Shown here: piece by piece, positions 1-31,069 of the stretch | Layout: each line of letters opens with the position of its first letter | How positions within the stretch are numbered: position 1 is the stretch's first letter | Virus record (IMG/VR): IMGVR_UViG_3300046782_000829 | DNA length: 64,000 bases | Source of the DNA: an uncultured virus (IMG/VR IMGVR_UViG_3300046782_000829) | Taxonomy: Duplodnaviria > Heunggongvirae > Uroviricota > Caudoviricetes | Strand: one strand, 5' to 3' | Program-made: the position numbers and the translations under genes | Notes under the pieces: generated by a model | Databases searched by the model: none | Seen by the model: the letters and a program-made list of their open reading frames with translations, nothing else | What the model was told of the DNA's origin: nothing

Positions 1-30
1 CTCAAACTTCTTCTCCTGCTTTTCCATCAT
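1..30 (-). CDS. 5' end of a gene truncated by the window edge (MMEKQEKKFE...)
   Basis: ATGA overlap with the stop codon of the 27..995 gene. Confidence 0.5.
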   Translation of the reverse strand, partial: MMEKQEKKFE

Positions 31-995
31 GCTTTCCCAAGCCTCTTTCGGAAGTCGTCCACTACGGTCTGGATCCCCTCCCGTAGCGGCACTGTCGGGC
101 GGAACCCTAGGACTGATGACGCAAGCGAGATATCGGGTCTCCTGATCTTCGGGTCGTCTGTCGGGAGGGCTTCCGTTACGGTCCTGAACGGTGCTCCGGT
201 TTCTTCCGAAACGATTGCCGCCAATTCCTCGATCGTAAACTCACCCGGGTTTCCCAGATTGGCGATAAAGGGACCGCCTGGCATGCGCGGATGCGTCGCC
301 ATTCTCCACAACCCATCGACGAGGTCGGAGCAGTGACAGAACGAACGCGTCTGGGTTCCGTCGCCATAGACGGTCAGGGGCTTTCCCAAGAGCGCCTGAA
401 GGACGAAGTTCGAAACAACCCGCCCGTCATTCAGGGCCATCCGGGGGCCGTACGTGTTGAAGATTCTCGCGATCCGGACGTCGATTCCCCACATCACGGA
501 TGCGTCACGCAGAAGCGTCTCGGCGGCCCGCTTCCCCTCGTCGTAACAGGACCGCGGTCCGACTGGATTCACGTTCCCCCAGTACGACTCCCGCTGAGGA
601 TGAACGAGTGGGTCCCCGTAGACTTCGGACGTCGACGCGTGGATGACCCGGCATCCAGTTGTGCGCGCCGCGCTTGCGGCTTCTGAGGCCCCCAGCACGC
701 ACGTCATCAGAGTCCCGTACGGATCCGCCTGGTAGTGAACCGGGCTAGCTGGGCACGCGAGGTTGAATAAAAAGTCGAGAAACCTGGAACCGAACAATTG
801 CCAAAACGACGGCGGAAGGTTTCGTACGTCCCCCCGTACGAAACGAAACTGCCCGCTTTTTTCGGCAGCCTCGAGGTTCCGTTCACTTCCCGTCATGAGG
901 TTGTCTATCCCGACGACCTCGAGCCCCTCCGCGAGCAGTCGGTCGCAAAGATGAGACCCCAGAAACCCGGCCGCACCGGTGACGATCGCCCTCAT
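27..995 (-). CDS. uxs: UDP-glucuronate decarboxylase / UDP-xylose synthase (extended SDR)
   Basis: TGAAGFLG Rossmann motif, NLACPASP, STSEVYGDP, YWGNVNPVGPRSCYDEGKR (YxxxK), RIFNTYGPRM, GDGTQTRSF. Confidence 0.92.
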   Translation of the reverse strand: MRAIVTGAAGFLGSHLCDRLLAEGLEVVGIDNLMTGSERNLEAAEKSGQFRFVRGDVRNLPPSFWQLFGSRFLDFLFNLACPASPVHYQADPYGTLMTCVLGASEAASAARTTGCRVIHASTSEVYGDPLVHPQRESYWGNVNPVGPRSCYDEGKRAAETLLRDASVMWGIDVRIARIFNTYGPRMALNDGRVVSNFVLQALLGKPLTVYGDGTQTRSFCHCSDLVDGLWRMATHPRMPGGPFIANLGNPGEFTIEELAAIVSEETGAPFRTVTEALPTDDPKIRRPDISLASSVLGFRPTVPLREGIQTVVDDFRKRLGKA

Positions 996-1891
996 CGGGC
1001 CCTCGGTTTCGCTCGTCCTTCGATCATCTTCCGAACCTCCGGCGACTTCGGCGCTTTCGACTGAATGAGCTCGAATCCGAGCTCATCGACCGCCGGGAGC
1101 GTCGCACGATCGATTCCTGGCTTCAGCTTCAGGGCCGTATCAAACCCTTTCCAGGCCCCCTTGATGACGTGTTGGGGGCGCTGAAACCGGCGCTTCGTCT
1201 CGACGATCCCGGGCCAAGCCTTCTCGAGCGACCTCGCCATCCGGAGGCGACCGTCCCCCTGATAGAGCTCCGCGGTGTTGCCGCCCTTCATCGTCATGGT
1301 CGTCATCTTCCAGACGAGGAACGCGTTGAACAGAACCGTGCACCACCCGCCGCTCAGGACCTGAAGGCAAAGGTCGGTGTCTTCGTTGTATCGACCCCTC
1401 CACCGGTACGGGAGATCGTTCCGGATCAAGAGGCACGAGTACACCCGGACGTTGAGATAGAACGGCGGCTGAACCGTGCGGTTCGCGCTGAACATGAAGT
1501 AGTTGAGGCCCGCGATCGCGACGTTCTGGTATCGGTCGACGAATCGCTCACAGGTCGCGAGCGCGGGCCCGGAGCTACACGGGATCTTGCGAGCCTTCCA
1601 ACGCCTGTAGGTACCCGAGATGTTGTCGTCGAGAATCCAGTGGCGTTCGGCCCCCGTAGCGGCCGAGTGCTCCCAGACGAAGTTCCGCGCCGGGATCCCG
1701 CCCTTTCCGAGATTGCTAAACGGTGTCTCGAGAATCTCTTCTGCGGTAGCGCCGTGCTTCAGGTAAAGGTCCCGCTCCTGCGGCTCGACGACGAGTCTGA
1801 ACGGTACCCCATCTCGCCTGAGGAACCGGGCCGTCATGCATCGCTCGGCCCGCCCCTTCGAGATCACGTACACCGGGTAAAGGGGGTTCAC
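992..1891 (-). CDS. GREB1-like / TET-JBP-associated GT-A glycosyltransferase (putative DNA base glycosyltransferase)
   Basis: N-terminal YPVYVISKGR, VVEPQE, ARNFVWEH, HWILDDNI (DD motif), YSCLLIRND, WRGRYNEDTDL, TMKGGNT. Confidence 0.78.
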   Translation of the reverse strand: MNPLYPVYVISKGRAERCMTARFLRRDGVPFRLVVEPQERDLYLKHGATAEEILETPFSNLGKGGIPARNFVWEHSAATGAERHWILDDNISGTYRRWKARKIPCSSGPALATCERFVDRYQNVAIAGLNYFMFSANRTVQPPFYLNVRVYSCLLIRNDLPYRWRGRYNEDTDLCLQVLSGGWCTVLFNAFLVWKMTTMTMKGGNTAELYQGDGRLRMARSLEKAWPGIVETKRRFQRPQHVIKGAWKGFDTALKLKPGIDRATLPAVDELGFELIQSKAPKSPEVRKMIEGRAKPRAR

Positions 1892-2586
1892 GTCTCGAAC
1901 CTCAGCCCCCCGACGTCCTCATTCTCGACGGAGGGCCAGCGAGCCCCCCAGGTCCCGTGGACCTTCTTCGCAATCCGAAGTTCGGCTTTGCGAACGAACT
2001 CGTCGCGGTCCGCTTCGGACGCGAACGACACGACGAGCTTCACTTGGCGTTCTCCCTGGTCGTACTCGGGCATCCCGACCCACTCGGCCGCGGCATCGAA
2101 CGTCGCGACCTCGGACGTCGGACGCGTTACCATCAGGAGCCCCGCCAACATCTGGTCGTCGAACCCGGTGCCGAGCAGGCCGAGTTCGTCCTCGTTCTTC
2201 ACCTGACGGAGCAGCTCCGTCAGCGCGCGGTCGTCCGACTCCGCGAACCTCCCGAGCTCGTTGTCGGCCGTCATGACCTTGAGGGCAGCGGGCGAATCGG
2301 GGTCGATATCGAGCCGAAACACCGGTACCTGGTCGAGCCCGAGCTTGCGTGCCGCTTCCGCGATGCCGTGACCGGCCAGGATCGTCCCGTCCCGCGCCAC
2401 CACGACCCGTCTGTAGATCCCGTACCGGCCGATCGACGCCGCGATGTGGTCGACCTGCTCCTGTGGATGCGATCGATAGTTCTTCGGGTGGGGCTTCAGC
2501 TCCGCGAGCGCCCAGTTCTCTTCGAACGACTGAACCGCATCCTTTTTCTTACCCTTCGCTACCGGGCGAACCTTGCTGGGGGGCAT
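1888..2586 (-). CDS. ParB/Srx N-terminal (CTPase/nuclease-fold) domain protein
   Basis: LKPHPKNYRSHPQEQVDHIAASIGRYG, VVARDGTILAGHG, ADNEL; start taken at ATG 2586. Confidence 0.8.
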   Translation of the reverse strand: MPPSKVRPVAKGKKKDAVQSFEENWALAELKPHPKNYRSHPQEQVDHIAASIGRYGIYRRVVVARDGTILAGHGIAEAARKLGLDQVPVFRLDIDPDSPAALKVMTADNELGRFAESDDRALTELLRQVKNEDELGLLGTGFDDQMLAGLLMVTRPTSEVATFDAAAEWVGMPEYDQGERQVKLVVSFASEADRDEFVRKAELRIAKKVHGTWGARWPSVENEDVGGLRFET

Positions 2587-3095
2587 GTCAGGAGCTGAAT
2601 GGCGCCGAACCAAACAGGAACTCGCTTGCCGTAATCGACGCCACGCCGACGAAGCAGGCGTGGGTTCCACCGACTCGGTTCTAACCCTTCCCCACCGATC
2701 GTTACGAACCCACCTCCCGCGTAATCGCTCGGAACCATTACGCGCCAAGCTTCGCGATTCCTTCGAAACCACAACATCGGAACTCGCCCCATCTCGTCGG
2801 CAGCCCTCTGGCACTGGCGCCACCATCCCCAGACCGGACTGGGGCGGCCCGACCGAAACGTCGACTCAGCCCACCCTTCGCGGTGCTTTACCTCAACGCA
2901 GAACGGAAACCGCTTCGCAGACGTCATGATGTCGCCGGACGCCTCGAATTCACCACGTGACTTCGCGTTCCCCCAGCCGCCGCTCCCGGGCGAGCGAACG
3001 AAGATACACCCGGGCTCGACCTGCCCCCACCAATCTCCGAACGTGCGGCAGACATCGAGCTCCGCCTTCGCGCCTTTTGAACGGGAATCGATCAC
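2559..3095 (-). CDS. PD-(D/E)XK Holliday junction resolvase-like nuclease
   Basis: SRSKGAKAE, RSPGSGGW, GDI...FPFCVEVK; GTG start overlaps the SbcC stop (GTGA). Confidence 0.75.
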   Translation of the reverse strand: MIDSRSKGAKAELDVCRTFGDWWGQVEPGCIFVRSPGSGGWGNAKSRGEFEASGDIMTSAKRFPFCVEVKHREGWAESTFRSGRPSPVWGWWRQCQRAADEMGRVPMLWFRRNREAWRVMVPSDYAGGGFVTIGGEGLEPSRWNPRLLRRRGVDYGKRVPVWFGAIQLLTCPPARFAR

Positions 3096-5059
3096 GCCAC
3101 TACCCGAGCGGTTGACCCTCGGTCGGTCCCGACGATCTCGATCCTCCCAGGGAAAGCATCGTTCGTCTCGGGTCGGTGCGTGATGACGAACGCCTGCCGG
3201 AACCCGTACCGGCTCGAAAGAAGAGACGCGACGTGTGCCGATAACGACCGCTGGTTCGCGCTGTCGAGCGACCCAAACGGTTCGTCGATGAAGCAGGTCG
3301 ACCACGCCGCACTTCGGTCCCGGCGGAGCCAACGGGCAGCCGATAGTTGGAACGCGATCCCGCAAAGATCATCCGCGCCCCCCGACTTGTCCGAAAGCTT
3401 TAGGTCGAGCCTGTGCTCGACGTTGTGGCCGCGAGCGGTCCCGCAGCGCGCGCATTCCTTCACGCGGGCACTTCTGCCGAACGGAGTCCCGCAGGCCTCA
3501 CACGAATCAGCTAGACCCTTGCCCTCGTGCCCCCACCGGACCTCCATCCGGAGCCTCATGCCGCAGTCCGCCAGCATCCCGTTCGCCCCGTCCTGGATCG
3601 CACCGAGTACGCCCTCCGCGATCCTCCGCTGGGCTCCACCGCGACCAAAGATCGCAAGCGCCTCGCGCGCGGTCGCGAGTTCCTTTTCCCGGGCAGCGAT
3701 TCGGCCAACCAGCTCGTCAGCGCGTCGCTTCCGCTCCGCAAACCCATCGAGTGCCTGTTTGGCCTGCCAGACCCGTTCGCGCGCTTCCGACTCAACGATC
3801 TTCACGCTCCCGAGCTCATCGTCGAGTGCCGTCAGATCGACAGCGCCTTCCCGTTCGGCCGCGGCTCTCGCTATCGGTTTGAGCCGTCGTGCCTCTACCC
3901 GATGGGCCTCGATTCGTCCCTTCAGGTCGTCGCGCTTCCGCAGCACGGCCTCTGTGCGAACCAACGTGGTTGCGTCGTCGCTCGCCTGTTTCTTCGCGAC
4001 CCCGTACCGGGCCGACGCGTCCTCGAGCAGCTTCAGATTCCCTGCCCTATCGGCATTGATCTGTTTCTCGATCGGACACGCACAGCCGGCAACCGGGCAT
4101 ACACCGTCGAACTTCCCGCGGGAAAGTTGGTCTTTCGACCTTACCTCCTGGTAAAGGGTTCGCTCGACCGCCAACGACGCGTCTCGCGCCTCCCGTGCCT
4201 TCGTGATGGCGGTAGTGACTTCGAGCTCGGACGGCATCGCGGCGAGCTCGGTCGCCATCGCGGTCCCTTGATCAACCACCTCTCGGAATCTCGCAAGGTC
4301 GCGCTGACCGGTCCGGGCCGCGACCGCTGCGTCGCGACGACCCGATACTTCCAGGACTACCCGGGCCGCGGCATCGAGCGAACGGGACGCATCCTCGAGT
4401 GCTTTTTGCCAAGAAGCCTGCACGACCTCGACCGGGTCGCTACCAGGGTCGCCTTTCAGTTCGGACCCCGTGAGCCGATTGAGCTCGGACCGGTCCGCGT
4501 CCTGAAGATCCGCGAGTCCTGCGGCCTTCGCCCTCAGGATCTTCTCGCCCTCCTGGACGGGTGCGAACCTGAGCCACTCACCCACGATCGCGATCCGGTC
4601 GGCTGGTTTCGCCGAAACGAACCAAGACGTCTTTTTCTGCTCGACGTACGGGCCGCGGCAAAAGTCCCGTAGCGAAAGCCCAACGCGCTCGCATATGATC
4701 TGTTGGGCCTCATCCCCGGTCGCCTCGCCGATACCCGGAATCTGGACGACGAGCTTCGTCGGACTTCCGCGCCGGCGCGAACGCGTTACCGTCATGGGCT
4801 CGTCGCCATCTTTTAGCAGCAGACGGACCGAACCGGACCGTTCGCCGTCCGTGATCCAATCGTCCTCGTATTCCTTGCGGTGCTGTCCGTAGAGACCAAA
4901 CAAGACCGACTCGACGAACGAACTTTTACCCTGCCAGTTCGAGCGGTCCGCTTCGTCCTGCCGACGCGCGACGATCGAGTACGCTTTCGGCTCCAGCGCC
5001 AGAACCTGCTGGCCCCGGTAGCAGAGCCAATTCTCAAGTCCGATCTCGGTGACGATCAC
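3092..5059 (-). CDS. sbcC: SbcC/Rad50-like SMC ATPase
   Basis: IGLENWLCY, Walker A NWQGKSS, coiled coils, central Cys hook (VCPVAGCACP), KSGG signature, FIDEPFGSLD, VITH; GTG start overlaps the upstream stop. Confidence 0.88.
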   Translation of the reverse strand: MIVTEIGLENWLCYRGQQVLALEPKAYSIVARRQDEADRSNWQGKSSFVESVLFGLYGQHRKEYEDDWITDGERSGSVRLLLKDGDEPMTVTRSRRRGSPTKLVVQIPGIGEATGDEAQQIICERVGLSLRDFCRGPYVEQKKTSWFVSAKPADRIAIVGEWLRFAPVQEGEKILRAKAAGLADLQDADRSELNRLTGSELKGDPGSDPVEVVQASWQKALEDASRSLDAAARVVLEVSGRRDAAVAARTGQRDLARFREVVDQGTAMATELAAMPSELEVTTAITKAREARDASLAVERTLYQEVRSKDQLSRGKFDGVCPVAGCACPIEKQINADRAGNLKLLEDASARYGVAKKQASDDATTLVRTEAVLRKRDDLKGRIEAHRVEARRLKPIARAAAEREGAVDLTALDDELGSVKIVESEARERVWQAKQALDGFAERKRRADELVGRIAAREKELATAREALAIFGRGGAQRRIAEGVLGAIQDGANGMLADCGMRLRMEVRWGHEGKGLADSCEACGTPFGRSARVKECARCGTARGHNVEHRLDLKLSDKSGGADDLCGIAFQLSAARWLRRDRSAAWSTCFIDEPFGSLDSANQRSLSAHVASLLSSRYGFRQAFVITHRPETNDAFPGRIEIVGTDRGSTARVVA

Positions 5060-6189: not shown

Positions 6190-7403
6190 TCTGCCGCTTC
6201 CGGCTTGGCGCCGAACTGTCCCCGGACCTCGCGCTCGAGGGCCCCCAGCATCTCGGGGTCGCCCGCGAGTGCCTTCAGGGCGGCCGCTTTGCCGTTCCAG
6301 CGCTTCCCCGGCGTCGACCAACTGAGCCACGCACCGCCAGGCGACTTCACGACCGCAAGCTCCATCCCGAGCTCCAGGACGTCGCGGGCGCGGTCGAATC
6401 CCTCGGGTGTCTGAACGCCGTTCGAGGTGTGGAAGTACGTGTCGGTATGCTTGTCGTCCTTGCCGCCGATCTTCGTCTTCCAGATCCGGACCTGATGCTG
6501 TTCCCCCACGACGGTCCCGCCGTCGGTCTTGGAGGCGCCGACCCGCGTCCACTCTTTCCGCGTCACCCGGATCCCGAGCGATGAATCGAACACGAGGGCC
6601 CCGCCGCCCGTGATCTTGAAGTCCTGCCCGTACTTCCGCTTGTTCGCGTCCGCGTTGACATCCTGCGACTCGCGCGCGATCACGACCATCGCGGTGTTGG
6701 TCTGCTGGAGCAGCATCGTGACCTCGTCGAGCCACGCCGCGTTCATGGCCGCCTTTATCTGAGCGGCCCTGCCCCCCATGCCGTCGACGCTCCCCTTCTC
6801 GCCCTCGGCCCCGATGTCCTGAATCTTGTCCCAGATATTCTGGGGAACGAGCTTTCGAATCGAGTCGACAACGACGAGAGCCGTTGTGTCCTTCGGGATC
6901 TGACCCTTCTCGCGGGCCTCACCAATTCCGACGAGATACTCGCGTGTCGCGTCGACCGTTTCCTCGTACGAGGTCGGCCGAATCGCGCTGAACCCGGGGT
7001 GATCGGCGTTCGGCCCCATCAGCTTCTCGACCCAATCGATCGGTGTCGTGTTCTCGGCATCGATCAGACCAAAGAAGTGGTCGCGATTCAGGAACGAAAG
7101 TCCTAATCCAAGGACGAATGCCGTTTTGCCATGATTCGAGGGACCGTGGACGATCCCGAACCGAGCGAGCGGATGACCGCCGACTCGCGTCCCCATGTCG
7201 TACCAGGGGAAGATCGTCGGAACCGCCTCGACCTTGAGCAGAACGTCGCGAGCCGGGCGAAACGCTTTGAAGCGCTTCGACACGGCCGCGAGTGCCTTCA
7301 GTCGTTCGTTCCTGGCAGATGAGCCGCCGTTGCCCCCGTCGCCGGCAGTAAGCGTTGCCTCTACCGGCGTCTCATTCTCGGCCGTTTCTTTCTTTTTTCG
7401 CAT
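6186..7403 (-). CDS. recA: RecA-like recombinase
   Basis: Walker A GPSNHGKT, IDAE, VVVDSI, TGGGALVFDSSLGIRV, KTKIG, GGAWLSW...WNGK. Confidence 0.88.
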   Translation of the reverse strand: MRKKKETAENETPVEATLTAGDGGNGGSSARNERLKALAAVSKRFKAFRPARDVLLKVEAVPTIFPWYDMGTRVGGHPLARFGIVHGPSNHGKTAFVLGLGLSFLNRDHFFGLIDAENTTPIDWVEKLMGPNADHPGFSAIRPTSYEETVDATREYLVGIGEAREKGQIPKDTTALVVVDSIRKLVPQNIWDKIQDIGAEGEKGSVDGMGGRAAQIKAAMNAAWLDEVTMLLQQTNTAMVVIARESQDVNADANKRKYGQDFKITGGGALVFDSSLGIRVTRKEWTRVGASKTDGGTVVGEQHQVRIWKTKIGGKDDKHTDTYFHTSNGVQTPEGFDRARDVLELGMELAVVKSPGGAWLSWSTPGKRWNGKAAALKALAGDPEMLGALEREVRGQFGAKPEAAE

Positions 7404-7417
7404 GGGAATAAGGCCTT

Positions 7418-8809
7418 TTAGAATTCCCATCTCCACCAACGCTCACCGGTCATTCTGGCTACGTCGCAATAAATGAAGGGGATCTCGTCGTCACTGCCTT
7501 CGAACGCGGCCGCGAGCCCAGCCGATACCGGTGACGTTGCAGGAGCCGTTTGAGCGGATTGGGTCGGCGGTGGTGCGGGCGGTGGGGTCGGGATCGGAAA
7601 CGTTTTCTGAGCGAGCTCACGCTTTGCCTCGCTTCGTTTTTTGAGCGGAGGGGGTGGCGGGGGTGGCGGAATCGCGGGAGCTGCCTGCTCGACCTCGTAC
7701 ACCTTCCCGCACGCGAGACACTTCGGGGCAGTTGCGGGCATCGGTGTCTCGCATCCGTCGCACGCGACCATGTCGTCCGGTTCCGACGCCGGCGGTGCCT
7801 CGGGCGCCGCTGCTTCCTCGGGCGAGTCGTCCTGCTCATCTTCCGCGAGATGACCGACTTCCGGAGCGTCCTTGTCCTTCGAGTCGCGCTCTGCTGCCTC
7901 ATCGGGCAGGTAGGAGGTCCAGTCGATTCCGCTGAGGCAACAGTGCTCCTCGAGCATCGCCCGCACGGCCGTTCGGGACTTCCCACCGACGATGTGGTCG
8001 AGGTTCGGGGGTGGACCGTCGATCAGCTTGGCGATCTCGGGCGTTAGCTTCTCCTCCACCATCGGGATAACCCCATAGGCTTCGTTGAACGATTCCGCCT
8101 TGTCGTCGTACTCCCACAGGAACGGGTACGGATTCTGGTACGGGTCCCCCTTCTCACGCCGGCTCTTCAGCTGGTCGCGCAGAACCCGGCGCATCTTGTC
8201 GCCGAGCCCGGAGGTCTCGACCGCGATCTGGACGCCCGACTTTACGTCGGAGTCGTCGACGACGCTGAACACGTATTCGGCTTTCGGCTTCGAGACCTGC
8301 TTCCACGCCTCTTTGACGAAGATGCCCTTGTCGCGAAGCTCGCCCTTCTCGTCGTCCGTGAGCTTCGGAGATCCGAAGAACCCCAGGAGACCACCCGCGT
8401 ACATGATGCGCTCGGTTCGGCCGTCGGGAGTGCGGAACCGAAACACCGGCTCGGTCCACGACATCTTACCCCCGACGATCTCCTGGTAGAGATCCTCGAG
8501 GAATCGGCAGTAGCCGCAGGACGGCGGGTGCTTCCGCTGTTTCGTATCCTTGTCGCGAAAGTTCTGGTTTCGCAGGACGTCCTCGTCGGTCTCGAAACAC
8601 CCGAACTTGTCACCCCAAATCTCGGCCGGCTTATCCTTCAGGTCCGCGACCCGCATGAACTGGTGACGCCAGAGGCAGTGGATGCGCGACTTCCGCGACA
8701 ACCAGACGAGGATCTTCCCCTTGTCCTTCCAGCTCTTCAGAACCTGCCCTCGACCGCCCCTCGTGGAGTGGTTGAGAAACTCGTCCATCGTCATCCCGGT
8801 ACCGGCCAT
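7418..8809 (-). CDS. Putative single-stranded DNA-binding protein with a Zn ribbon and Pro-rich linker
   Basis: Lies between PolB and RecA; CxxC motifs; acidic/Pro-rich tail containing DDEIPF. Confidence 0.55.
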   Translation of the reverse strand: MAGTGMTMDEFLNHSTRGGRGQVLKSWKDKGKILVWLSRKSRIHCLWRHQFMRVADLKDKPAEIWGDKFGCFETDEDVLRNQNFRDKDTKQRKHPPSCGYCRFLEDLYQEIVGGKMSWTEPVFRFRTPDGRTERIMYAGGLLGFFGSPKLTDDEKGELRDKGIFVKEAWKQVSKPKAEYVFSVVDDSDVKSGVQIAVETSGLGDKMRRVLRDQLKSRREKGDPYQNPYPFLWEYDDKAESFNEAYGVIPMVEEKLTPEIAKLIDGPPPNLDHIVGGKSRTAVRAMLEEHCCLSGIDWTSYLPDEAAERDSKDKDAPEVGHLAEDEQDDSPEEAAAPEAPPASEPDDMVACDGCETPMPATAPKCLACGKVYEVEQAAPAIPPPPPPPPLKKRSEAKRELAQKTFPIPTPPPAPPPTQSAQTAPATSPVSAGLAAAFEGSDDEIPFIYCDVARMTGERWWRWEF

Positions 8810-12945: not shown

Positions 12946-13632
12946 TCAGGCCGCCATCCGTTCGATGTCCGAAACCGTGCAGCCGATATTGATCAGCGCT
13001 TGGTTGATCATTCTGGTCGCGATCGGTCCGTCGATTCCGGCGAACAGCTTCCCCGCGACCTCCCGCACCGATCCACCCGTCGCTACAAGGGCCTCGAGGA
13101 TCGAGCGATCGAACGTCGTTCTGCACCGGGCCAGTATGGCGCGAACCTCCGCAACCCGTTCTTGGATCGGTTCCGCGACGACCATGTCGGCGGGATCGAA
13201 TCCCCCTTCATCGACACCCCGCATCGACGAAAACGGGACCGCGTACCGCGATGGGTTCTTGTCGCGCGTGCCGTGCTTGTTGCACTGGCGGGCGCGGTGG
13301 GCTTCCGCTTTGCCGACAACTCCCGCCCCATAAAGTAAAAACCGCCCGATCGAAACACCACGCGAAGGATCGAATTCGGCGAACTTCTGCCAGACCGCCA
13401 CCGCCATCTCTTGCTCGACGTCCTCGGCACCCGTGGGGGCCTTCCAGCGCCGTAGAATCCAGGCCGCTTTTGCCGCCAACACGGGACGCGTTTGCTTGTA
13501 AAAACACTCGAACGTAATTCGGCCGTCTAGACAAGCTTGAGCTAATTCCTCGAACGAACCGCCGACCGGCGTGATGGTTTTGAGAGCTCGGTCGAGCGCT
13601 ACCCGCGCCCCGGGTTCGTACCGTCTCCTCAT
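12946..13632 (-). CDS. Sigma70-family RNA polymerase sigma factor-like protein
   Basis: Region 2-like AEDVEQEMAVAVWQKFAEFDPSRGVSIGRFL; C-terminal HTH GGSVREVAGKL. Confidence 0.7.
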   Translation of the reverse strand: MRRRYEPGARVALDRALKTITPVGGSFEELAQACLDGRITFECFYKQTRPVLAAKAAWILRRWKAPTGAEDVEQEMAVAVWQKFAEFDPSRGVSIGRFLLYGAGVVGKAEAHRARQCNKHGTRDKNPSRYAVPFSSMRGVDEGGFDPADMVVAEPIQERVAEVRAILARCRTTFDRSILEALVATGGSVREVAGKLFAGIDGPIATRMINQALINIGCTVSDIERMAA

Positions 13633-13679
13633 GACAATGCGCCTACATTGTTCACGTGATCCTCTTTCTCCGGACAATC

Positions 13680-17858: not shown

Positions 17859-19361
17859 TCAAGTCCTCCTGATTCCGCCCCGGTAAGCCTTCTCGCGCTT
17901 CAGATACTCGTCCGCCGGCACCCAGACCTGTCGGTCGAGCACGACAACGTCGTCGTTCCAGCGCGCGAGATTCTCGACCGCCTTCAGGCCCGTGATGGCG
18001 CGATCCCAGAGGTAATAGAGCCTCGCGCCTTCCTTGCCGGCCGAGGTCCGGCAGAACCGACCCCGGACCTGCCCGAGGAGCTGTTCGTTCCCGATATGAC
18101 TACACAGGACGGCGCGGTCGAGCGTCGGAACGTCGATCCCGGTCCCGACCGCCTTGATGGTCCCGACGACCGTTCGGATCTTCCCCGACGCCGCGTTCCG
18201 GACCGCTTCATCGAACTCGCGTTCGTTCTCCGGTCCCCCCACCATCACGCCAGGCGGGAACCCTCGCGCCACCAGCCCCGCCGCGAGCCTCTCGCAGGCG
18301 GCACGTCGGTCAGCCAGGAGGGCGACGACGTGGCCCGCACGGGCCTCCTGGGCCGCAAGGTCGGCCGCTATCGTGATCCTACCGGGGTCGGTCGCGAGTT
18401 CACCCTGGAGCTTCGTGTGGGCCCACCGGATCCGGAAGGGGTTCCCGGACGCCTTCGCCTGCCGGTACCAGCCGGGGGGCTCGTAGCCGGTCGGGACGAG
18501 CGCGACCTGTACGTCGTGCACGATTCCCTTCTGAACGACCTCCTGCCGCGGTACCTCCGCGACGACATCACCGAAGAGGTCCCGGATCATGTACTCGCGC
18601 CCGTCGCGCCGGCGTTCGTCCTTCGAGATCCCAATCCGGTACTGGGCCGGGAACGGATCGATCGCCGCGAAGAAAGTGTCGGCGGCCGCCGTCTGGACCT
18701 CGTCAAACACAACGGTCCCGAACATCGCCATCTGGTCCTCCACGAGCGGCCGGATCGCGAGGGTCTTCTGCATCGCGACCGTCAGGGGGGCGAGCCTGCG
18801 GGTCGGGCCCTGCACGATCCCGATGTCGATCTCCCGAAGCCCACATTCTTCCCGGATGCGCTCGACCCACTGCTTCAGGAGTCCCTTCGTGTGAACGATG
18901 ACGAGCATCCAGCGCCCGACCCGACACGCGAGCGCGAGCGCGGCTGACGTTTTGCCCCCACCGGTTTCGGCCCGCAGCAGACAGTTCTGCCGGGCCATCG
19001 CGGCCACGACCATCCGTTCTTGGTGGTCCCACGGTACGCCCCCCTTCGGGTACCGGTGCCGGACCGTCATCGGGCAACCGGACGCGCGCGCGTCGACGAC
19101 CCTGTACGGGACTCCGGTCGCGCTGAGGATCCGGCGGACGCGCCCCATCCCGCCCCGCGGGACCGAGATCCCGGAGGGGATCGGGCGCCACGTTACGTCG
19201 ATCTCGCCGGTCGGACCGGGCTGTCCCGGGAGCGCCGGGATTGGGTGTTCGAACTCCCGCTTGAGCGTCGGGAGGGCGGCCGTGAGCTCGTGCGGCGGCA
19301 CCGGACTCGATTCCGGGACCTCCTCGACCTCGACACGGTTCGTGACCGTCACGACCACCAT
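17859..19361 (-). CDS. Superfamily 2 (DExD/H-type) helicase
   Basis: WDHQ, ETGGGKT, VVFDEVQ, GTGIDVPTLD, QVRGRFCR. Confidence 0.88.
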   Translation of the reverse strand: MVVVTVTNRVEVEEVPESSPVPPHELTAALPTLKREFEHPIPALPGQPGPTGEIDVTWRPIPSGISVPRGGMGRVRRILSATGVPYRVVDARASGCPMTVRHRYPKGGVPWDHQERMVVAAMARQNCLLRAETGGGKTSAALALACRVGRWMLVIVHTKGLLKQWVERIREECGLREIDIGIVQGPTRRLAPLTVAMQKTLAIRPLVEDQMAMFGTVVFDEVQTAAADTFFAAIDPFPAQYRIGISKDERRRDGREYMIRDLFGDVVAEVPRQEVVQKGIVHDVQVALVPTGYEPPGWYRQAKASGNPFRIRWAHTKLQGELATDPGRITIAADLAAQEARAGHVVALLADRRAACERLAAGLVARGFPPGVMVGGPENEREFDEAVRNAASGKIRTVVGTIKAVGTGIDVPTLDRAVLCSHIGNEQLLGQVRGRFCRTSAGKEGARLYYLWDRAITGLKAVENLARWNDDVVVLDRQVWVPADEYLKREKAYRGGIRRT

Positions 19362-19378
19362 TGCGGCCGAGATGGCTC

Positions 19379-19398
19379 ACCGCGCCGCGCGGCGCGGT
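19379..19398. repeat. 20-bp palindrome, intergenic
   Basis: Exact copy. Confidence 0.9.
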
Positions 19399-19732
19399 CT
19401 TCGGGATCGCGATCGGCGGGATCGTCCGCGGATCGTCCGTATACCGTTTTCCGGATCGTCCGTACGGATCCGCCTACTGATCCGGATCACGTTCCCGCCG
19501 ATCGATCACGCGCCCATGTGGAGTTTGCGACAAGCAAACCCACATACGTGCTTCGCGCAGCGAAGCACCCTCACCCTTTACTGATCTAAGAGATCTGGGA
19601 GATCTAAGAATCAAAGAAACATATAAAAGAACAAGCAAATGAGGTTGGATACTGCGTATCCAACCACTCTTATCCCATCCCCCCTACCCCCCTTCCCAGG
19701 ATGGCGCCCAACAGGGTCTGGCGCCACCCACC
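19379..19732. other. Structured intergenic region, candidate replication origin
   Basis: 20-bp palindrome, 3x GGATCGTCCG, about 13 GATC sites, three strong hairpins, and an AT-rich tract with 2x GATCTAAGA. Confidence 0.5.
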
Positions 19733-19969
19733 CTACTGCTTCGTCGGTTCGTCGGGCCAGGTGTCGGCGATCTTCTGGGCCTCGGCCGACGCGTTCTTCT
19801 GAACCTCGTCGAGCGCTTCTCGGATCCCGGCTTCGTTGAACGCGGCCTTCAGCCCATCGAGCAGCGCCGCAAGCGCGGCCCCGCGGGGCCCCGGGATCAT
19901 GTGCGCGACCTCGTCGAGCAAGAACAGAGCGTGGTCGGCTTCTTCGACGATTCTTCCTAAGTCGATCAT
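19733..19969 (-). CDS. Hypothetical protein
   Basis: ATGA-coupled to the lipoprotein gene. Confidence 0.6.
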   Translation of the reverse strand: MIDLGRIVEEADHALFLLDEVAHMIPGPRGAALAALLDGLKAAFNEAGIREALDEVQKNASAEAQKIADTWPDEPTKQ

Positions 19970-22500: not shown

Positions 22501-24327
22501 TTACGGGCAACCTAGGTCGTCACGAACAAGATCGAACCCGACCCCACCGGCCCGCACGGTGTCGATTACCTGCCAGACCGTTTGGTAAAAGTTACCCGCG
22601 GAGGCCGGATAGCCGTCGTAGAACGTGACGGCTGGCGACGAGTCGTATGCGTTGCTGGTCCCCGAGTCGTACGCGAACCCAAATTCGCCGTAATTGACCC
22701 CCTGGACCGTAACGAGGAAAAAAGCCCGCATCTCCAAGAAACTGAACAGATACCGGTACCGGAGGGTATGGTCGGGCCCACCCGAAAGCGTCGAAGGAGG
22801 CGTGTAGACTTGGCCGCTGACGGTTCCGTGAAGCGGCAGTGTATTGACGAACGTTCCCTGAACGACCGCGATCGATTCGAGGAACCGAGGCGTAACGGGA
22901 CCGACTCCCGATACCTGAAACGCAAGAATCGCCTTCCCGACCGCCGTGATCCCGGTCGTAGGATCCCGCTGTTCGATTCGTTCGCCTTCGAAGAAGTTGA
23001 AGTTTGGAGCCGCAACGGCTCCGTCGATCAGCACGGCCTCCATGTCGTACCAGTCCCCGAGGTCCGGGCGGTCGTAATAAAACCCCGGGAGCGACGCGAG
23101 CCCCGCTTCGCGCAGGCATCCCTGGATCCCGACAGGCGCCAGTACGCGGTTGAATGCTCTAATGACCGCGCCTGGCGAGACGACATCCGACGGAACCGCG
23201 ATCTTGCGGCGATACGAAAAGTCACCTTCTGCTGGTCCGCGGTGAATGTTACGCTCGCGCCCGAGGGCATCAAGGAACCCGAGGCGACCACCAGTTGGTT
23301 GTTCCTGATTGGTCGTCTCGATTCCCCAGCCCCCGGCTCCCCAGGGAACGAACTCCCAAGCGGCCGTGCCGGATTCCGGCGTGAGGGTGGAGTCGTACGA
23401 AATCGTGCTCGGCGCGGCTGTCGCGAGTGATGTCGCGCCCGTGATGACACCGGCTCCCGTGAAGGTTCCGGATGTCCACTGGACGACGAACGACGTCGCG
23501 GTCGCGCCGAGAAACGTGCCGGTCGCGCCGGAACCAAATTGGGTTACGGGTTCGCCTTCGATGAAGTTCCCAATCCCGGACGCATCGAACGCGATATCGC
23601 GCGCGACCGACAGAACACCCCCGTCCGTCGGACCCGGCCTCGCGTACCCGACGACTCTTGCGACGCGGCCGACGTTCGACCCGGCCGTGAACCGAAGGTA
23701 CTGGCCGACGTGATCCGGCACGAATGTGTCGGGTTTTTGGGCGCAGCGTACGAGGGGGGGCGTGACCGTCGCGTCGTTATTCGCGAAGTTCGCCGCGATC
23801 TGTCGGATCGCCCGAAGCGTGTCGGGTAGCGGGTTGTTGTATCCCCACCCAACGAGTTCGGCTTCTGCCGTGAGGTCGACTTCGGCGGTATCGCCGGGCG
23901 CGAAGCAATACGCGCTCGTTAGGTGATAGAGGCGCCCCGACTCGAAGGCTTCGCCTTCTGCTCCCGGGGTCGCGCCCCAATCGGTCGTGGTTTCGCCGAC
24001 CAAAAACGGACCCGCCATCAGGACCAGCGGGATATTGGGGAGCCCGCTCCGCGAGACCGAGAGCGTGACGGTCGCGCGCTTCTCGCCGGCGGCCGGATCT
24101 GATGTCTGGCCGCTCCACGGCAGGATGTACATGGCCTGCGTCGTGACGTCGACGGCCCTCGAGAGACGCTCCAGCATCGCCCAAGTCTGCGCGTATGCCT
24201 CGATCCCGGACCCGTCCCCCTTCTCGAAGAGCGAAGCGGAAAACTGGTTATCGACCGACGATTCCCAGACCGCCTGAAGGTCCGCGATCGTCAGGGGACC
24301 CTGTGCGGCGACGATCGGAACCGTCAT
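22501..24327 (-). CDS. Baseplate wedge protein (gpI-like position)
   Basis: Directly follows baseplate J; LDALGRERNIHRGPAEGDFSYRRKI; ends ...VRAGGVGF. Confidence 0.6.
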   Translation of the reverse strand: MTVPIVAAQGPLTIADLQAVWESSVDNQFSASLFEKGDGSGIEAYAQTWAMLERLSRAVDVTTQAMYILPWSGQTSDPAAGEKRATVTLSVSRSGLPNIPLVLMAGPFLVGETTTDWGATPGAEGEAFESGRLYHLTSAYCFAPGDTAEVDLTAEAELVGWGYNNPLPDTLRAIRQIAANFANNDATVTPPLVRCAQKPDTFVPDHVGQYLRFTAGSNVGRVARVVGYARPGPTDGGVLSVARDIAFDASGIGNFIEGEPVTQFGSGATGTFLGATATSFVVQWTSGTFTGAGVITGATSLATAAPSTISYDSTLTPESGTAAWEFVPWGAGGWGIETTNQEQPTGGRLGFLDALGRERNIHRGPAEGDFSYRRKIAVPSDVVSPGAVIRAFNRVLAPVGIQGCLREAGLASLPGFYYDRPDLGDWYDMEAVLIDGAVAAPNFNFFEGERIEQRDPTTGITAVGKAILAFQVSGVGPVTPRFLESIAVVQGTFVNTLPLHGTVSGQVYTPPSTLSGGPDHTLRYRYLFSFLEMRAFFLVTVQGVNYGEFGFAYDSGTSNAYDSSPAVTFYDGYPASAGNFYQTVWQVIDTVRAGGVGFDLVRDDLGCP

Positions 24328-25463
24328 GCCGCTAGCGTCACGTTCTGCGAAGTCGTCCGGATCGTCTTACCGGCGTCCGGTATTACGTCGCCGACAGGCG
24401 CGACGATCGTGCTGTTGGCGGGCGTTGTCGGATCGGTCGTGACGACGAGCCCATCACTTCGGAAGCGGGCCAAAACCGCCTGAAGGTCCGCGATTCTGAG
24501 CGGGTTGTTGACCGGAATCGAATTGATGAACCCAACGACCGCCGACAAGACGGCCTGGGTCAGCGAAACCGTGTCGACGTTCGCCTCGAACGCGAGCCTC
24601 AGGACGACGTCGACGATCTCGGGCTGGCTCGTCACGACGATGACGGCAATCCCGGCCGCCCGATACTCACCGAGGGATGTCGAGACGCGGTTCGCGAGCG
24701 CTTGATTCGAAACACCTGAACCGTCCGCCACGTACAGGATCACGACCCGAGCGGGCGTCGACCCGACCGTCGTGACCTCCGACGCCTGAGCCGATACGAC
24801 TCCCGGAACCTGGCGGGCCCCGAGCTCGATCGCCTTGAGGGTCCCGCGGCGAGCCGTCAGCCAGAAGTCACGAACACGGTTTCGGAAGTCCTCGTCTTGT
24901 TCGCGGTCCGCGCCTCCCGCGGTCGCGACCGGATTGTTCACCGTCAGGGTCGGGTCGAACGGAACGTTCGCCGGCGCCTGCGGTGGGATTCTCCGGATCT
25001 GGTTCGCCCCGACCTGAAAGTCGCGCCCGGCCTGAACCGCCTGAACGTCAGCGCTCGACGTCAGGTCAGTACCCGAGAACGCAGCCGTTGAGGTCGTGAC
25101 GTACTCGATCCCGTCGTTCGTCGTGACTTTCGTGCCGACCAGGATCGACCCGGCCCCCACGGTGGCCGATACTCGCGAAAACTGAACGGTCCCGACGGCA
25201 GGAGACGCGCCGAACCGCGCCGTCTGGTACCGGTCCCAGGCGAAGCGGTCGAGGTCCTCGTCCTCGGCCCCATCGAGCAGGAGGCGATTGACCGAGTACG
25301 CGAGCTGTTTGACGATCTCGAACGCGACGACGCTCGTCGAGCCGACGAAAACGTTGACGTCGCTCCCCTGGACGTCGATCTGTTTCGGGTCGATCTTGTT
25401 CGCCCGTTCGACGACGTACTGGCGCCCTACCGCAAAGAGGTCGAGCCGGGAGGGCAGATCCAT
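24324..25463 (-). CDS. Baseplate J-like protein
   Basis: AEDEDLDRFA, GGADREQDEDFRNRV, RGTLKAIE..ARQVPGV, YRAAGI. Confidence 0.9.
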   Translation of the reverse strand: MDLPSRLDLFAVGRQYVVERANKIDPKQIDVQGSDVNVFVGSTSVVAFEIVKQLAYSVNRLLLDGAEDEDLDRFAWDRYQTARFGASPAVGTVQFSRVSATVGAGSILVGTKVTTNDGIEYVTTSTAAFSGTDLTSSADVQAVQAGRDFQVGANQIRRIPPQAPANVPFDPTLTVNNPVATAGGADREQDEDFRNRVRDFWLTARRGTLKAIELGARQVPGVVSAQASEVTTVGSTPARVVILYVADGSGVSNQALANRVSTSLGEYRAAGIAVIVVTSQPEIVDVVLRLAFEANVDTVSLTQAVLSAVVGFINSIPVNNPLRIADLQAVLARFRSDGLVVTTDPTTPANSTIVAPVGDVIPDAGKTIRTTSQNVTLAA

Positions 25464-25503: not shown

Positions 25504-26406
25504 CTACCCGGCTACAATCACGACCGGAACGTCGAACCGCTTCGCGGCCCCTACGACCGGTTTGACCAACACGACGTATCGGGCGAGCTGCGGGGTCGCG
25601 GGGTCGTACTGAATCTTGACCTTGACCCTCGAAACGTCCGGCTCCTGCCGGATCTGAGCTTCCGCGGCTGTCGCGATCTTTTGACGGTTTGCTGGGCTGG
25701 CGAGGAGCTTCAGAAAGCTGGCGGTCCCGACCCCGTAGGCGTTCCCGAGATGAAGGAAACTACCCGGGATCGAGAGCATCCGGCGGAAGACCCGTTTGCG
25801 GAGGGACGCGATGCCCTCGTCGAACGCGTAGTCGCCCGACGAATCGACCGGGATCGTTCCGAGAACGAGCGGATCGGTTCCATTCGGAAGCGGGTCGAGT
25901 GCGCTCGAGAGCGTATCGGGGTGTGCGATATCGCGCGACGGAAGGAGTCCGTCAGGGGTTGGGTCCCGGAACGGCTGCCGGACCCCGTAGAAAGTCGCGT
26001 GCGCGTTCGCCGGCGAAAGCCCAACGAGGTCGTGAACCGTTACGTCGTAAAGGGCCGGGTAGGGGCTCAGGGGGCGGTCGAGAATCAGATTCAGAATCGT
26101 ACCGGCGAGCCCTTGATCATCGACGAGATCGACCCGGATGACCCCGACGGTTCGGGCCGGGAGCCCATCGTACCCGATCGTCGACGTATCGGGCGTGACC
26201 ACGTAGTGGAGTGGGTCGCCGGCGTCGTTCGAGTCGAGGAGTCCCGTCACGACAAGGTCTAGCGAAAAGAAGAGCTGCACGACGTTTTCGCGGATCGCGA
26301 ACGCGTTCGAGAGGGCCGGACTGACCGGTACGTCGGTCGGGCCGAGCCCCGCCCACGGGAAAACGCCCCACGGTCCACTACCCCAGCCGGTATCGACGGT
26401 CGTCAC
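25504..26406 (-). CDS. Baseplate protein with a C-terminal gp25/gpW-like domain
   Basis: GDYAFDEGIASLRKRVFRRMLSIPGSFLHLGNAYGVG...QEPDV. Confidence 0.7.
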   Translation of the reverse strand: MTTVDTGWGSGPWGVFPWAGLGPTDVPVSPALSNAFAIRENVVQLFFSLDLVVTGLLDSNDAGDPLHYVVTPDTSTIGYDGLPARTVGVIRVDLVDDQGLAGTILNLILDRPLSPYPALYDVTVHDLVGLSPANAHATFYGVRQPFRDPTPDGLLPSRDIAHPDTLSSALDPLPNGTDPLVLGTIPVDSSGDYAFDEGIASLRKRVFRRMLSIPGSFLHLGNAYGVGTASFLKLLASPANRQKIATAAEAQIRQEPDVSRVKVKIQYDPATPQLARYVVLVKPVVGAAKRFDVPVVIVAG

Positions 26407-26419
26407 GCCCCAGATGGTA

Positions 26420-26797
26420 TCAGCTGTCGGCTTCCGCGTCCGGGTCGGGGTCTGCGCGCGAGATCCGACCCCCACCCCACGCGACCCCCGCGGCGAAGTT
26501 GAGGGGGTGCTCGTTCAAAACACCGTCGCACGAGATCCCGACCGCGAGCGCGAACTTCGGGAGAGGGATCGCGAACGGGGGGATCGAGAAACTGAGCCCA
26601 AACGGGAGTGGTCCCGGAAGCTTGAACCCACAGATCGAGAACGGAAGCGTCGGGACCCGTATTCCTGCGCCCCCAGCGGCGCCTGGGAATGCCGGGATCG
26701 GAGGGAGCTTCAGCGATAACGAGAACGCCGCGGCCTCGTCCGCCAGATCTTGGACGGCCGGCGGCGGAGCGTTCGGGGGCGGTTGGAATCCCGACAT
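26420..26797 (-). CDS. Pro-rich hypothetical protein in the baseplate operon
   Basis: 125-aa ORF between the spike and wedge genes. Confidence 0.6.
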   Translation of the reverse strand: MSGFQPPPNAPPPAVQDLADEAAAFSLSLKLPPIPAFPGAAGGAGIRVPTLPFSICGFKLPGPLPFGLSFSIPPFAIPLPKFALAVGISCDGVLNEHPLNFAAGVAWGGGRISRADPDPDAEADS

Positions 26798-26800
26798 CCG

Positions 26801-27802
26801 TTAGCCTGCCAGAAACCCCGGGCACGTGACGCCCGGATTGTTTCCCGTTGGGTTTGGAAGTTTTCCCGCCATTGCGCCCGCGAGGGCCGACATGACGGCC
26901 GGCGATACGGTTCCGGTACCCGGTACGCCGGCGGCCGACAATACGCTCGCGAGGAACGCATCACGCGCCGGCGGAGCCGATAGCGCCGCGAGTGCCCCCG
27001 GGGCCGAGAACCCCGAGAGTAGGAGCAGAAAGTTGTTCAGAATGTTGAGGACCTGTTCGGTTGTCGCGACGTGTTCGCTCGCGGTGGCTCCCTGGGTCGA
27101 GACCTGGAGCGCCCCGGTCGTTCCGACGACGCTCCCCTGTTCGCCGAGCAGCATGATGGCTTTGCCCGTTACTTCTGCCCTGACCTGCTTGTTCTTCTTG
27201 TCGAGCTGAAGGACCATCACGGTCGACCCGGGGGTCGTGACGGGGGACGTCTTGTCGGTATCGTCGGTCGTCTGAAGACCAGCGAAGTCGGGCCCGAGAT
27301 GAAGGAAGTCACCGAACCCATCCCGGGCCGTCGTTGAGCCGGCGGCCTCCATCATCAGGAGCGCTCCCGTGACGGCGTTCCGGACCCCCCAGGCCTGCGC
27401 GGTTTCGACCATCCAGGGCGCCTTCATGCGCCGGAACCCGAAGTTGTTTTGAGTCGGATCGTTCGCCGCGACCGTATCGGGCCACGCGTCGAGCTCGTTG
27501 TTCATCCGCGCGACGATCACGGGATGGGCGCGTTCGTCCCCTTCCGGGATCAGGACCAAGACTTCGTCGTTCGCCGCGAACGGATAGTACTCGCCTTCGC
27601 CGGCGCCCGCGACACCCCCCGCGACCCGGCACCGGCACGGGATCCCGGACGGCTGAAGCGTCACGTCGACGATCGGGCCGAGCCCTTTCTCGAACGTAAC
27701 GGATCGGGAATCGGGTCCGTCCGGATCGACGGTACCGTACGAGACCCACTGGCGCGTATCGGCGCCAGGAAAACTCGTCATATCGCTGAGCTCGCGCTCC
27801 AT
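26801..27802 (-). CDS. Baseplate spike (gpV/gp5 OB-fold)
   Basis: AGAGEGEYYPFAANDEVLVLIPEGD...PVIVAR. Confidence 0.8.
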   Translation of the reverse strand: MERELSDMTSFPGADTRQWVSYGTVDPDGPDSRSVTFEKGLGPIVDVTLQPSGIPCRCRVAGGVAGAGEGEYYPFAANDEVLVLIPEGDERAHPVIVARMNNELDAWPDTVAANDPTQNNFGFRRMKAPWMVETAQAWGVRNAVTGALLMMEAAGSTTARDGFGDFLHLGPDFAGLQTTDDTDKTSPVTTPGSTVMVLQLDKKNKQVRAEVTGKAIMLLGEQGSVVGTTGALQVSTQGATASEHVATTEQVLNILNNFLLLLSGFSAPGALAALSAPPARDAFLASVLSAAGVPGTGTVSPAVMSALAGAMAGKLPNPTGNNPGVTCPGFLAG

Positions 27803-29562: not shown

Positions 29563-29593
29563 CCCTAAGGGTCCCAGCGGGGGGCCGGAGCCG

Positions 29594-30814: not shown

Positions 30815-30819
30815 GGCTC

Positions 30820-30839
30820 ACCGCGCCGCGCGGCGCGGT
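30820..30839. repeat. 20-bp palindrome, intergenic
   Basis: Exact copy. Confidence 0.9.
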
Positions 30840-30843
30840 CCCC

Positions 30844-31020: not shown

Positions 31021-31069
31021 GTTGGATTCTCCTGGCCAGAACCCTACCGCTGCTGAGGCGCCCGCACAA

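Follow-up and report, generated by a model that had tools for sequence, protein, structure and literature searches.

The window, that is, the whole stretch of 64,000 nucleotides that was analysed, belongs to an uncultured virus of the Caudoviricetes (IMG/VR record IMGVR_UViG_3300046782_000829) and represents most of a myovirus-like phage with 64% GC and nearly all of its genes on the minus strand. At its left end lie four translationally coupled genes, which encode a ParB-like protein (ParB1), a glycosyltransferase of the TAGT ('TET-associated') family, a UDP-glucuronate decarboxylase (UDP-xylose synthase, UXS) and a second ParB-like protein (ParB2), of which only the start is within the window. 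ParB1 and TAGT were found to be a mobile pair that recurs in many phages and to which UXS is an optional addition, and none of the known enzymes that make an acceptor base for this family was found in the complete genome of the phage. The locus may encode a glycosyltransferase that is tethered by ParB1 and puts xylose on the phage DNA, at an acceptor outside the known routes.

The three complete open reading frames (ORFs), which an earlier note on this DNA had described as minus-strand genes with overlapping stop and start codons, were read as such in the sequence (Table 1). Overlaps of four bases join ParB1 to TAGT (GTGA, 1888-1891), TAGT to UXS (ATGA, 992-995) and UXS to ParB2 (ATGA, 30-27), and the operon continues past UXS into ParB2. 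The ATG of ParB1 lies 28 bases within the 3' end of the PDDEXK gene that precedes it, and its open frame extends further up to 2826. The cassette ORFs are real genes, with a GC content at third codon positions of 0.71-0.81 and, in comparison with a 95%-identical relative (L002), ratios of nonsynonymous to synonymous substitution rates of 0.18 for UXS, 0.019 for TAGT and 0.032 for ParB1. The genes upstream on the same strand encode PDDEXK, SbcC, SbcD, UvsX/RecA, PolB, a sigma factor, primase, DnaB and a helicase, which bears out the proposal that the cassette continues the replication operon. Its setting in this phage is within an operon for replication, recombination and packaging; in other phages it is found just ahead of the terminase genes.

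Table 1. Genes of the cassette, its upstream neighbour and a second probable glycosyltransferase gene of the same phage.
Feature	Position	Strand	Remarks
ParB1, ParB-CTPase-fold protein, 232 aa	1888-2586	-	ATG at 2586
TAGT-family GT-A glycosyltransferase, 299 aa	992-1891	-	GTG start
UXS, UDP-glucuronate decarboxylase (UDP-xylose synthase), 322 aa	27-995	-	
ParB2 start, second ParB-like gene leaving the window at the left edge	1-30	-	ATGA overlap with the UXS stop
PDDEXK_15 endonuclease gene, upstream context	2559-3365	-	PF24608, E 8e-28
Probable second GT-A (GT2-like), 321 aa	G001 23463-24428 = L085:3463-4428	-	About 11 kb downstream of the cassette

The TAGT protein matched PF20691 with an E value of 1.2e-43 and 149.9 bits (cut-off 27.5), over profile positions 1-205 of 205. 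It also matched phrog_842, the family of the T2/T6 beta-glucosyl-HMC-alpha-glucosyltransferase (HMC, hydroxymethylcytosine), with an E value of 4.9e-37. Its AlphaFold2 (AF2) model, with a mean predicted local distance difference test score (pLDDT) of 83.5 and a predicted template modelling score (pTM) of 0.81, resembles UDP-sugar GT-A enzymes. This model was matched by 193 PDB chains at E <= 0.001, and the top 40 or so of the matches listed were almost all GT-A enzymes, including COLGALT1, LH3, SpsA, GnT-I and LARGE1. The profile and structure searches that had been suggested for 992-1891 thus gave a full-length PF20691 match and a GT-A fold, and for all three genes the profile, PDB and fold matches agreed with the families named in the earlier note.

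Nineteen members of the TAGT subfamily share the invariant residues R14, D88-D89-N90 and N169-E170-D171-T172-D173. The motifs R...DDN...EDT of this protein resemble, by pattern only and with no alignment to the published enzymes, the R...DDD...EDY/F that is described as the active-site pattern of phage GT-A DNA glycosyltransferases (bioRxiv 10.1101/2023.12.21.572611). Among the characterised members of PF20691, two kinds are reported to act on DNA, namely the T2/T6 beta-glucosyl-HMC-alpha-glucosyltransferase (PMC13216743) and the 5mYOX-linked GT-A enzymes (bioRxiv 10.1101/2023.12.21.572611). No homologue of this TAGT subfamily with more than 43% identity was found in cultured phages, where the values were about 37-43%. 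One such homologue, with 39% identity and an N-terminal extension of some 110 residues, was seen in Vibrio phage 1.076.O (MG592452.1; L089 4674-5843), where it lies between the portal and head-morphogenesis genes and has no ParB annotated nearby.

ParB1 matched phrog_620 (E 8e-29), and the best PDB matches to its AF2 model (pLDDT 78) were CTP- or CDP-bound ParB (7bnk, 6sdk, 7bm8), Noc, KorB and PadC. The top Foldseek matches had E values of 1e-6 to 2e-4, and were followed by the serine kinase SerK and sulfiredoxin. The motifs PHPxNYR, AGHG and DNE are conserved in ParB1, and are taken here to be the ParB boxes. When ParB1 and TAGT were modelled as a complex, values of 0.79, 0.82 and 0.82 were obtained for the interaction prediction score from aligned errors (ipSAE), with a contact agreement of at least 91% and a partner pLDDT of at least 76; the best of three controls scored 0.00. 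Of 157 solved complexes 116 reach the ipSAE mark, as do 2 of 215 mismatched pairs; because the alignments were made for this analysis, these counts are a rough guide here. On the ParB1 side the predicted interface comprises the C-terminal half (residues 117-181 and 220-232, including the invariant W169, G171 and P173), and on the TAGT side residues 96-117, 137-146 and 243-294; the ParB-type N-terminal domain is left free in the predicted complex. These models support the binding of ParB1 to TAGT. In one subclass of the phage thymine dioxygenases, activity on double-stranded DNA in particular has been reported to be stimulated by ParB-like proteins, which may keep the enzyme attached to the DNA (PMC13229309). 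It had been proposed earlier that, while DNA is being packaged, modification enzymes are guided to it by ParB proteins (PMC8256090).

A scan of viral contigs yielded at least 598 loci that carry a relative of this TAGT, of which the best 80 were examined; with the exception of two contigs that belong to the same phage, their TAGTs were 55-72% identical to that of the window. A ParB1 homologue was present directly upstream of TAGT in 78 of the 80 loci, a few of these matches being partial or weak, and the two loci without it have less than 210 bases of upstream sequence. The other recurrent neighbours were terminase subunits, portal, MuF, prohead protease, DUF932 and YqaJ, and none of the neighbour families found in at least 5 of the 80 loci was a TET or thymidylate-synthase relative. 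Among the 132 ORFs of the complete record of this phage (G001), only TAGT (59-72% identity) and ParB1 (50-51%) had homologues in all three of the genomes G004, G005 and G006, of which G004 is complete and the other two have hardly anything further in common with G001. A third gene conserved with the pair was rejected on both counts, as no gene enzymatic toward a base emerged from the clustering of the 80 loci and none at all from the comparison of the four proteomes. In contigs of metagenome-assembled genomes from many phyla, searched with tblastn, the closest TAGTs again had ParB1 upstream (9 of 32 loci), and more distant TAGTs had other neighbours.

ParB and TAGT are thus a mobile pair that constitutes the core unit, with UXS as an optional add-on. 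Of the three-gene cassette described in the earlier note, the linkage of ParB with TAGT and the recurrent linkage of UXS were upheld; UXS proved to be dispensable, and is absent from the sister phage G004. In the published papers that were searched, neither a ParB protein as the constant, predicted binding partner of a glycosyltransferase itself nor a TAGT fed by UXS was found; supplements may list such neighbourhoods.

The full-length ParB2 gene (226 aa), available in the relative L002 and in G001, matched PF02195 ParB_N (E 1.5e-7) and phrog_620 (E 8e-34), and its product is 24% identical to ParB1 over 106 residues. ParB2 homologues were present in 12 of the 80 loci, and a second ParB-like gene or domain often precedes the ParB1-TAGT pair (L015 5935-7254 and relatives; L076, L077 and L080-L083 8953-9996). 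In the clade of L015, a 439-aa ORF contains two ParB_N stretches. Because of these ParB2 homologues and of the doubled stretches in the L015 clade, two different ParB proteins per cassette may be common.

Judged from its sequence, the product of the third gene, a short-chain dehydrogenase/reductase, is a UDP-glucuronate decarboxylase. Its best PDB match was human UXS1 (hUXS1; 4gll), with an E value of 1e-88 and 301 bits, and the next PDB family scored 152 bits. Residues T122, S123, E124, Y151, K155 and R285 align with the six active-site residues T118, S119, E120, Y147, K151 and R277 of hUXS1, in which a Thr-Tyr-Lys triad is accompanied by Ser119, Glu120 and Arg277, residues that set UXS apart from the epimerases (PMC3438964). 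The protein was far below the NCBIfam cut-offs for RmlB, GalE and ArnA. Among the best 120 homologues listed, the nearest relatives are cellular UDP-glucuronate decarboxylases with 59-63% identity, and UDP-glucuronate decarboxylase was the name most often given; the nearest relatives include Polyangiales, which is a weak hint at the host. No UDP-glucose dehydrogenase (UDPG_MGDP_dh) was found in G001, and the UDP-glucuronate must therefore come from the host.

UXS was present in 21 of the 80 TAGT loci, or in 19 when the species of the window itself is left out, and the cassettes have at least four gene orders, including UXS-x-ParB-TAGT, UXS-ParB-TAGT and ParB-TAGT-UXS. UXS also adjoins ParB-less TAGTs of 44-46% identity. 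On a quick tree of the TAGTs, the presence of UXS requires at least five changes, three of which are forced by well-supported branches. Repeated, separate recruitment of UXS is suggested, because the UXS of the window shares 59-63% identity with cellular UXS and 45-53% with the UXS found in other cassettes. The possibility that the UXS-linked TAGTs form one clade, as after a switch of donor, was rejected, the presence of UXS being scattered on the same tree. UDP-xylose is probably the donor used by TAGT. In the viral UXS loci (L143-L219), the commonest neighbours were PTPS/QueD-like genes (25 loci), UvdE (22), ClpP (19) and a cytidylyltransferase (13).

The flank to the left of the window was followed through two near-identical contigs and through G001, a genome of 96,181 bp with a 127-bp direct terminal repeat and a CheckV completeness of 100%. 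Beyond ParB2 it carries five small ORFs (132, 196, 272, 99 and 113 aa), and then genes for an NT5C deoxynucleotidase, TerL, a MazG-like protein, a dNMP kinase, a dCMP deaminase and UvrD; further along there are an RNase T-type exonuclease, an HNH protein, a Dam-type methyltransferase and a second sigma factor. No Pfam, PHROG or NCBIfam match was obtained for the five small ORFs, which looked helical or low-complexity by eye, and the 272-aa ORF may be the small terminase subunit. An enzyme that makes the acceptor base had been thought to lie, if anywhere, to the left of position 1; no hydroxymethylase or TET/JBP was found in this flank or in the complete G001.

The nucleotide genes of G001 that surround the terminase (25738-32042, or L085:5738-12042), namely those for UvrD, the dCMP deaminase, a T4 gp1-like dNMP kinase, the MazG-like pyrophosphatase and NT5C, resemble a kit for shaping the nucleotide pool in the style of the T-even phages, without its central enzyme, a ThyA-family hydroxymethylase. 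A set of dCMP deaminase, dNMP kinase, MazG-like protein and NT5C recalls the pre-replicative pathways of those phages. Sigma-70-like factors are encoded at 12946-13677 of the window and at 7091-7912 of G001, and a D12-class (Dam-type) adenine methyltransferase at 18942-19775 of G001, all on the minus strand.

Two candidates for a missed acceptor enzyme were set aside. The first is the 321-aa protein of G001 (Table 1), which might have been a hidden ThyA-like enzyme. It had no Pfam match and looks like a GT-A enzyme of the GT2 type, which profile comparison showed to be unrelated to TAGT. In the ESM Atlas it matched, at 0.99, a cluster automatically named GT2; PF00535 was annotated on 7 of the 120 homologues listed, from a family of 1871 unannotated proteins (E <= 1e-5); and weak PDB matches were obtained to B4GALNT1 (at the WIDADV motif) and to ceramide glucosyltransferase. 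The second is a weak Tet_JBP match in another cassette genome, G042; the protein turned out to be of the generic 2OG-FeII_Oxy_3 kind, and its gene is about 18 kb away from the cassette. G042, which is the record for L078, is a complete 43-kb phage in which UXS-ParB-TAGT is followed by an S-adenosylmethionine (SAM) methyltransferase gene. Three tandem ORFs with HxD...H patterns like those of 2-oxoglutarate (2OG)-Fe(II) oxygenases were seen in the same genome, likewise about 18 kb away from its cassette (L107 1135-2956); the first of them matches PF13640.

The preferred reading of the whole chain, to which a probability of roughly 40% is given, is that a ParB-tethered TAGT puts xylose on the phage DNA before packaging, with an acceptor outside the known routes. 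ParB1 and TAGT would form a two-protein DNA-glycosylating unit in which the C-terminal half of ParB1 docks on TAGT, and the free, ParB-CTPase-like N-terminal domain would hold the enzyme on double-stranded phage DNA, in a way akin to the ParB-like activators of the phage thymine dioxygenases. The phage UXS would convert UDP-glucuronate of the host to UDP-xylose, from which TAGT would transfer xylose to the phage genome after replication and before packaging, and the sugar would presumably have a protective role. As acceptor, either ordinary DNA would offer some group of its own, or an enzyme not yet recognised would make a suitable base. Known routes to 5-hydroxymethylcytosine (5hmC) or 5-hydroxymethyluracil (5hmU) should not provide it, since every known enzyme for these bases is missing from the complete genome.

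Several observations weigh against this reading. ParB1 did not reach Pfam ParB_N at E 0.01, and the score of the ParB1-TAGT complex is the confidence of a model and not a measurement. The sequence CTGCAG has no site in G001 against 8.5 expected, and TGCA is depleted, with an observed/expected ratio (O/E) of 0.66; palindromes are not generally avoided in this genome (median O/E 1.07 for 4-mers and 0.93 for 6-mers). As a measure of shielding this pattern is ambiguous, but the full absence of CTGCAG suggests that these sites at least are not shielded by any modification. The remaining observations concern the donor and the acceptor.

As regards the donor, the cassette lacks UXS in most phages: 24 of the 45 TAGT loci that could be judged had no UXS nearby, 35 loci being too short to judge. 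UXS was found nowhere in the complete sister genome G004, whose TAGT is, at 72% identity, the closest outside the near-identical relatives of this phage, and very close TAGTs differ in the presence of UXS, as in L044 and L054. Conversely, among the best 80 of 115 phage UXS loci, 67 had no TAGT within the available flank and 13 had one. The loci without TAGT place UXS among PTPS, UvdE, ClpP, cytidylyltransferase and GT2 genes, and resemble regions of auxiliary metabolism. The link between UXS and TAGT is therefore real but not exclusive, and TAGT might glycosylate DNA with a donor of the host, such as UDP-glucose, with UXS serving another purpose. This purpose could be to feed the second, GT2-like transferase that G001 probably encodes, to drain the UDP-glucuronate of the host, or to block the synthesis of host capsule or exopolysaccharide by raising UDP-xylose, which is a known inhibitor of UDP-glucose dehydrogenase. 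This explanation is considered unlikely, as UXS is translationally coupled to TAGT by the ATGA overlap and, in many gene orders, lies next to TAGTs from two subfamilies, an arrangement that would be difficult to account for if the two had no pathway in common; where a phage lacks UXS, its host may simply produce UDP-xylose itself.

As regards the acceptor, six-frame family searches of G001 gave no Tet_JBP at E <= 10, no Thymidylat_synt (ThyA) at E <= 1, no ThyX and no C5 DNA methylase. In 50 other cassette records, Tet_JBP above the cut-off and ThyA were each found in none, and the same was true of the 10 records that are at least 90% complete (G001 and nine others). As no Tet_JBP or ThyA was found, the chemistry known for the TAGT family has no substrate here. 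The target might be something other than DNA, such as RNA, a nucleotide, a polymer of the host envelope or a protein, for instance ParB itself or a protein of the virion or of packaging. In line with this are the missing acceptor pathway in G001 and the 50 other records, the fold matches of TAGT, which are mostly to protein and polysaccharide glycosyltransferases, and the position of the Vibrio phage 1.076.O homologue among the virion genes. About 65% of the phage glycosyltransferase contigs in a published survey have no base-modification neighbour, and were regarded by its authors as less obviously linked to DNA (bioRxiv 10.1101/2023.12.21.572611). A target other than DNA is nonetheless judged to be as improbable as a host donor. 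The obligate partner ParB1 has a ParB-CTPase fold, whose known members act on DNA, and DNA-modifying enzymes repeatedly have ParB proteins as their partners (PMC13229309; PMC8256090). In addition, the PF20691 match is strong and full-length, and the 299-aa TAGT sequence has no membrane or secretion feature by eye.

The least probable of these explanations is a classical 5-hydroxymethylpyrimidine acceptor whose hydroxylase or hydroxymethylase has diverged too far to be recognised by the Pfam models. In its favour, the characterised TAGT and GT-A DNA glycosyltransferases all use hydroxymethyl or glycosylated hydroxymethyl acceptors (PMC13216743; bioRxiv 10.1101/2023.12.21.572611), thousands of matches to 5mYOX profiles have no Pfam TET/JBP annotation (PMC13229309), and G001 has both the nucleotide genes mentioned above and dozens of ORFs without a family; against it, four nearly unrelated genomes that share only ParB1 and TAGT would each need a different cryptic enzyme, Tet_JBP and ThyA are missing from all of the nearly complete records, the sole weak Tet_JBP match, that in G042, is generic and distant, and the small ORFs between ParB2 and NT5C look helical or low-complexity by eye.

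A bolder form of the preferred reading, which is regarded as rather unlikely, is that the pair is a self-sufficient mobile module for which no hydroxymethylated base is required. Double-stranded DNA would be clamped or opened by the ParB-like subunit, and the GT-A enzyme would attach a sugar, here xylose, directly to some group of ordinary DNA, for example an amine or oxygen in exocyclic position on a canonical base. If true, such direct glycosylation of ordinary DNA would be a new chemistry of DNA modification.

The closest characterised relative, the T2/T6 beta-glucosyl-HMC-alpha-glucosyltransferase, is likewise phage-encoded, has the same Pfam and PHROG families and the GT-A fold, and lies among genes of DNA metabolism. 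It adds a second glucose to the glucosyl-hmC that is made by dCMP hydroxymethylase and alpha-glucosyltransferase (PMC13216743). In this phage, by contrast, no hydroxymethylase was found and TAGT is paired with a ParB-like protein and UXS; no alpha- or beta-glucosyltransferase family turned up in the Pfam scans of the window and G001. The T-even glucosyl-hmC pathway combines a dCMP hydroxymethylase of the ThyA family with a dCTPase, a dNMP kinase and a GT-B alpha- or beta-glucosyltransferase, and thus also differs in its ThyA-family gene, which is missing from G001 although the dNMP kinase, MazG-like protein, dCMP deaminase and NT5C are present. The phage clusters of 5mYOX and GT-A enzymes contain a JGT-like GT-A enzyme near ParB, terminase and sugar epimerase genes and modify DNA after replication (PMC8256090; bioRxiv 10.1101/2023.12.21.572611). 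Unlike these, G001 has no 5mYOX or C5-methyltransferase, and its TAGT has the motifs R...DDN...EDT. The sugar enzyme of this phage is a decarboxylase that makes a pentose donor, whereas the accessible text of the papers on those clusters reports glycans of the hexose type and does not mention xylose.

The ParB-dependent thymine dioxygenases (PMC13229309) are similar in that a short ParB-like protein, with an N-terminal domain of the nucleotide-binding type and a C-terminal domain, is encoded beside a DNA-modifying enzyme, and in that structure prediction sets the enzyme against ParB. The partner here is a glycosyltransferase (in 78 of 80 loci) and not a dioxygenase, and no 5mYOX was found. The complex of 5mYOX and ParB is described as one that could not be trapped (PMC13229309), whereas ParB1 and TAGT are predicted to bind with high confidence.

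Modifications of the pentose type are described for two groups of phages: RB69-like phages contain arabinosyl-cytosine derivatives (PMC6024577; PMC13390438), and Shewanella phage Thanatos contains a deoxypentose-cytosine, its protein TH1_063 making UDP-xylose in vitro from xylose-1-phosphate (PMC12838424). As proposed for the present phage, they carry a five-carbon sugar on their DNA and encode part of the donor supply. They differ by having ThyA-type hydroxymethylase or hydroxylase genes and different transferases, with no TAGT-ParB pair described, and their donor comes from a pyrophosphorylase or an arabinose pathway, where UXS here would decarboxylate UDP-glucuronate. Kinetoplastid base J, made by JBP1/2 and JGT, is also a sugar added to DNA after replication, and JGT is described as a eukaryotic structural relative of the phage GT-A DNA glycosyltransferases (bioRxiv 10.1101/2023.12.21.572611). 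Base J needs 5hmU made by JBP and UDP-glucose; here no dioxygenase was found and a xylose donor is implied.

Two further features of the phage were observed outside the cassette. Directly beside it, the PDDEXK/SbcC junction is a local variable spot, at which G001 has about 210 extra bases (38191-38401, against window 3095-3102). The PDDEXK proteins of the window and of G001 share 80-90% identity, in contrast to the 100% of ParB1, TAGT and UXS. A 1429-aa ORF on the minus strand (window 48283-52572) lies in a stretch of lower GC content (0.58-0.60 against 0.64), and had no Pfam match and only a weak match to a PHROG tail protein.

The literature already describes the glycosylation of phage DNA by TAGT and GT-A enzymes, the occurrence of ParB genes next to modification genes, and pentose adducts. 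What the present locus adds is a compact case, in a complete genome, of three or four genes with a predicted partner (ParB1) and an implied donor (UDP-xylose), and with the known acceptor routes ruled out. The sugar coats of phage DNA decide whether it can be attacked by restriction enzymes, CRISPR nucleases and glycosylase-type defences, and the enzymes that make them have given tools to biotechnology, such as the T4 beta-glucosyltransferase. If the ParB1-TAGT pair modifies ordinary DNA, it could become a tool for tagging DNA with pentoses. If it spares DNA, calling the family 'TET-associated' would be misleading, as would many annotations of phage genes. A solitary TAGT has been reported in 288 of 753 phage genomes (PMC13216743), and direct glycosylation, if true, would explain the many 'solitary' TAGT genes of phage surveys.

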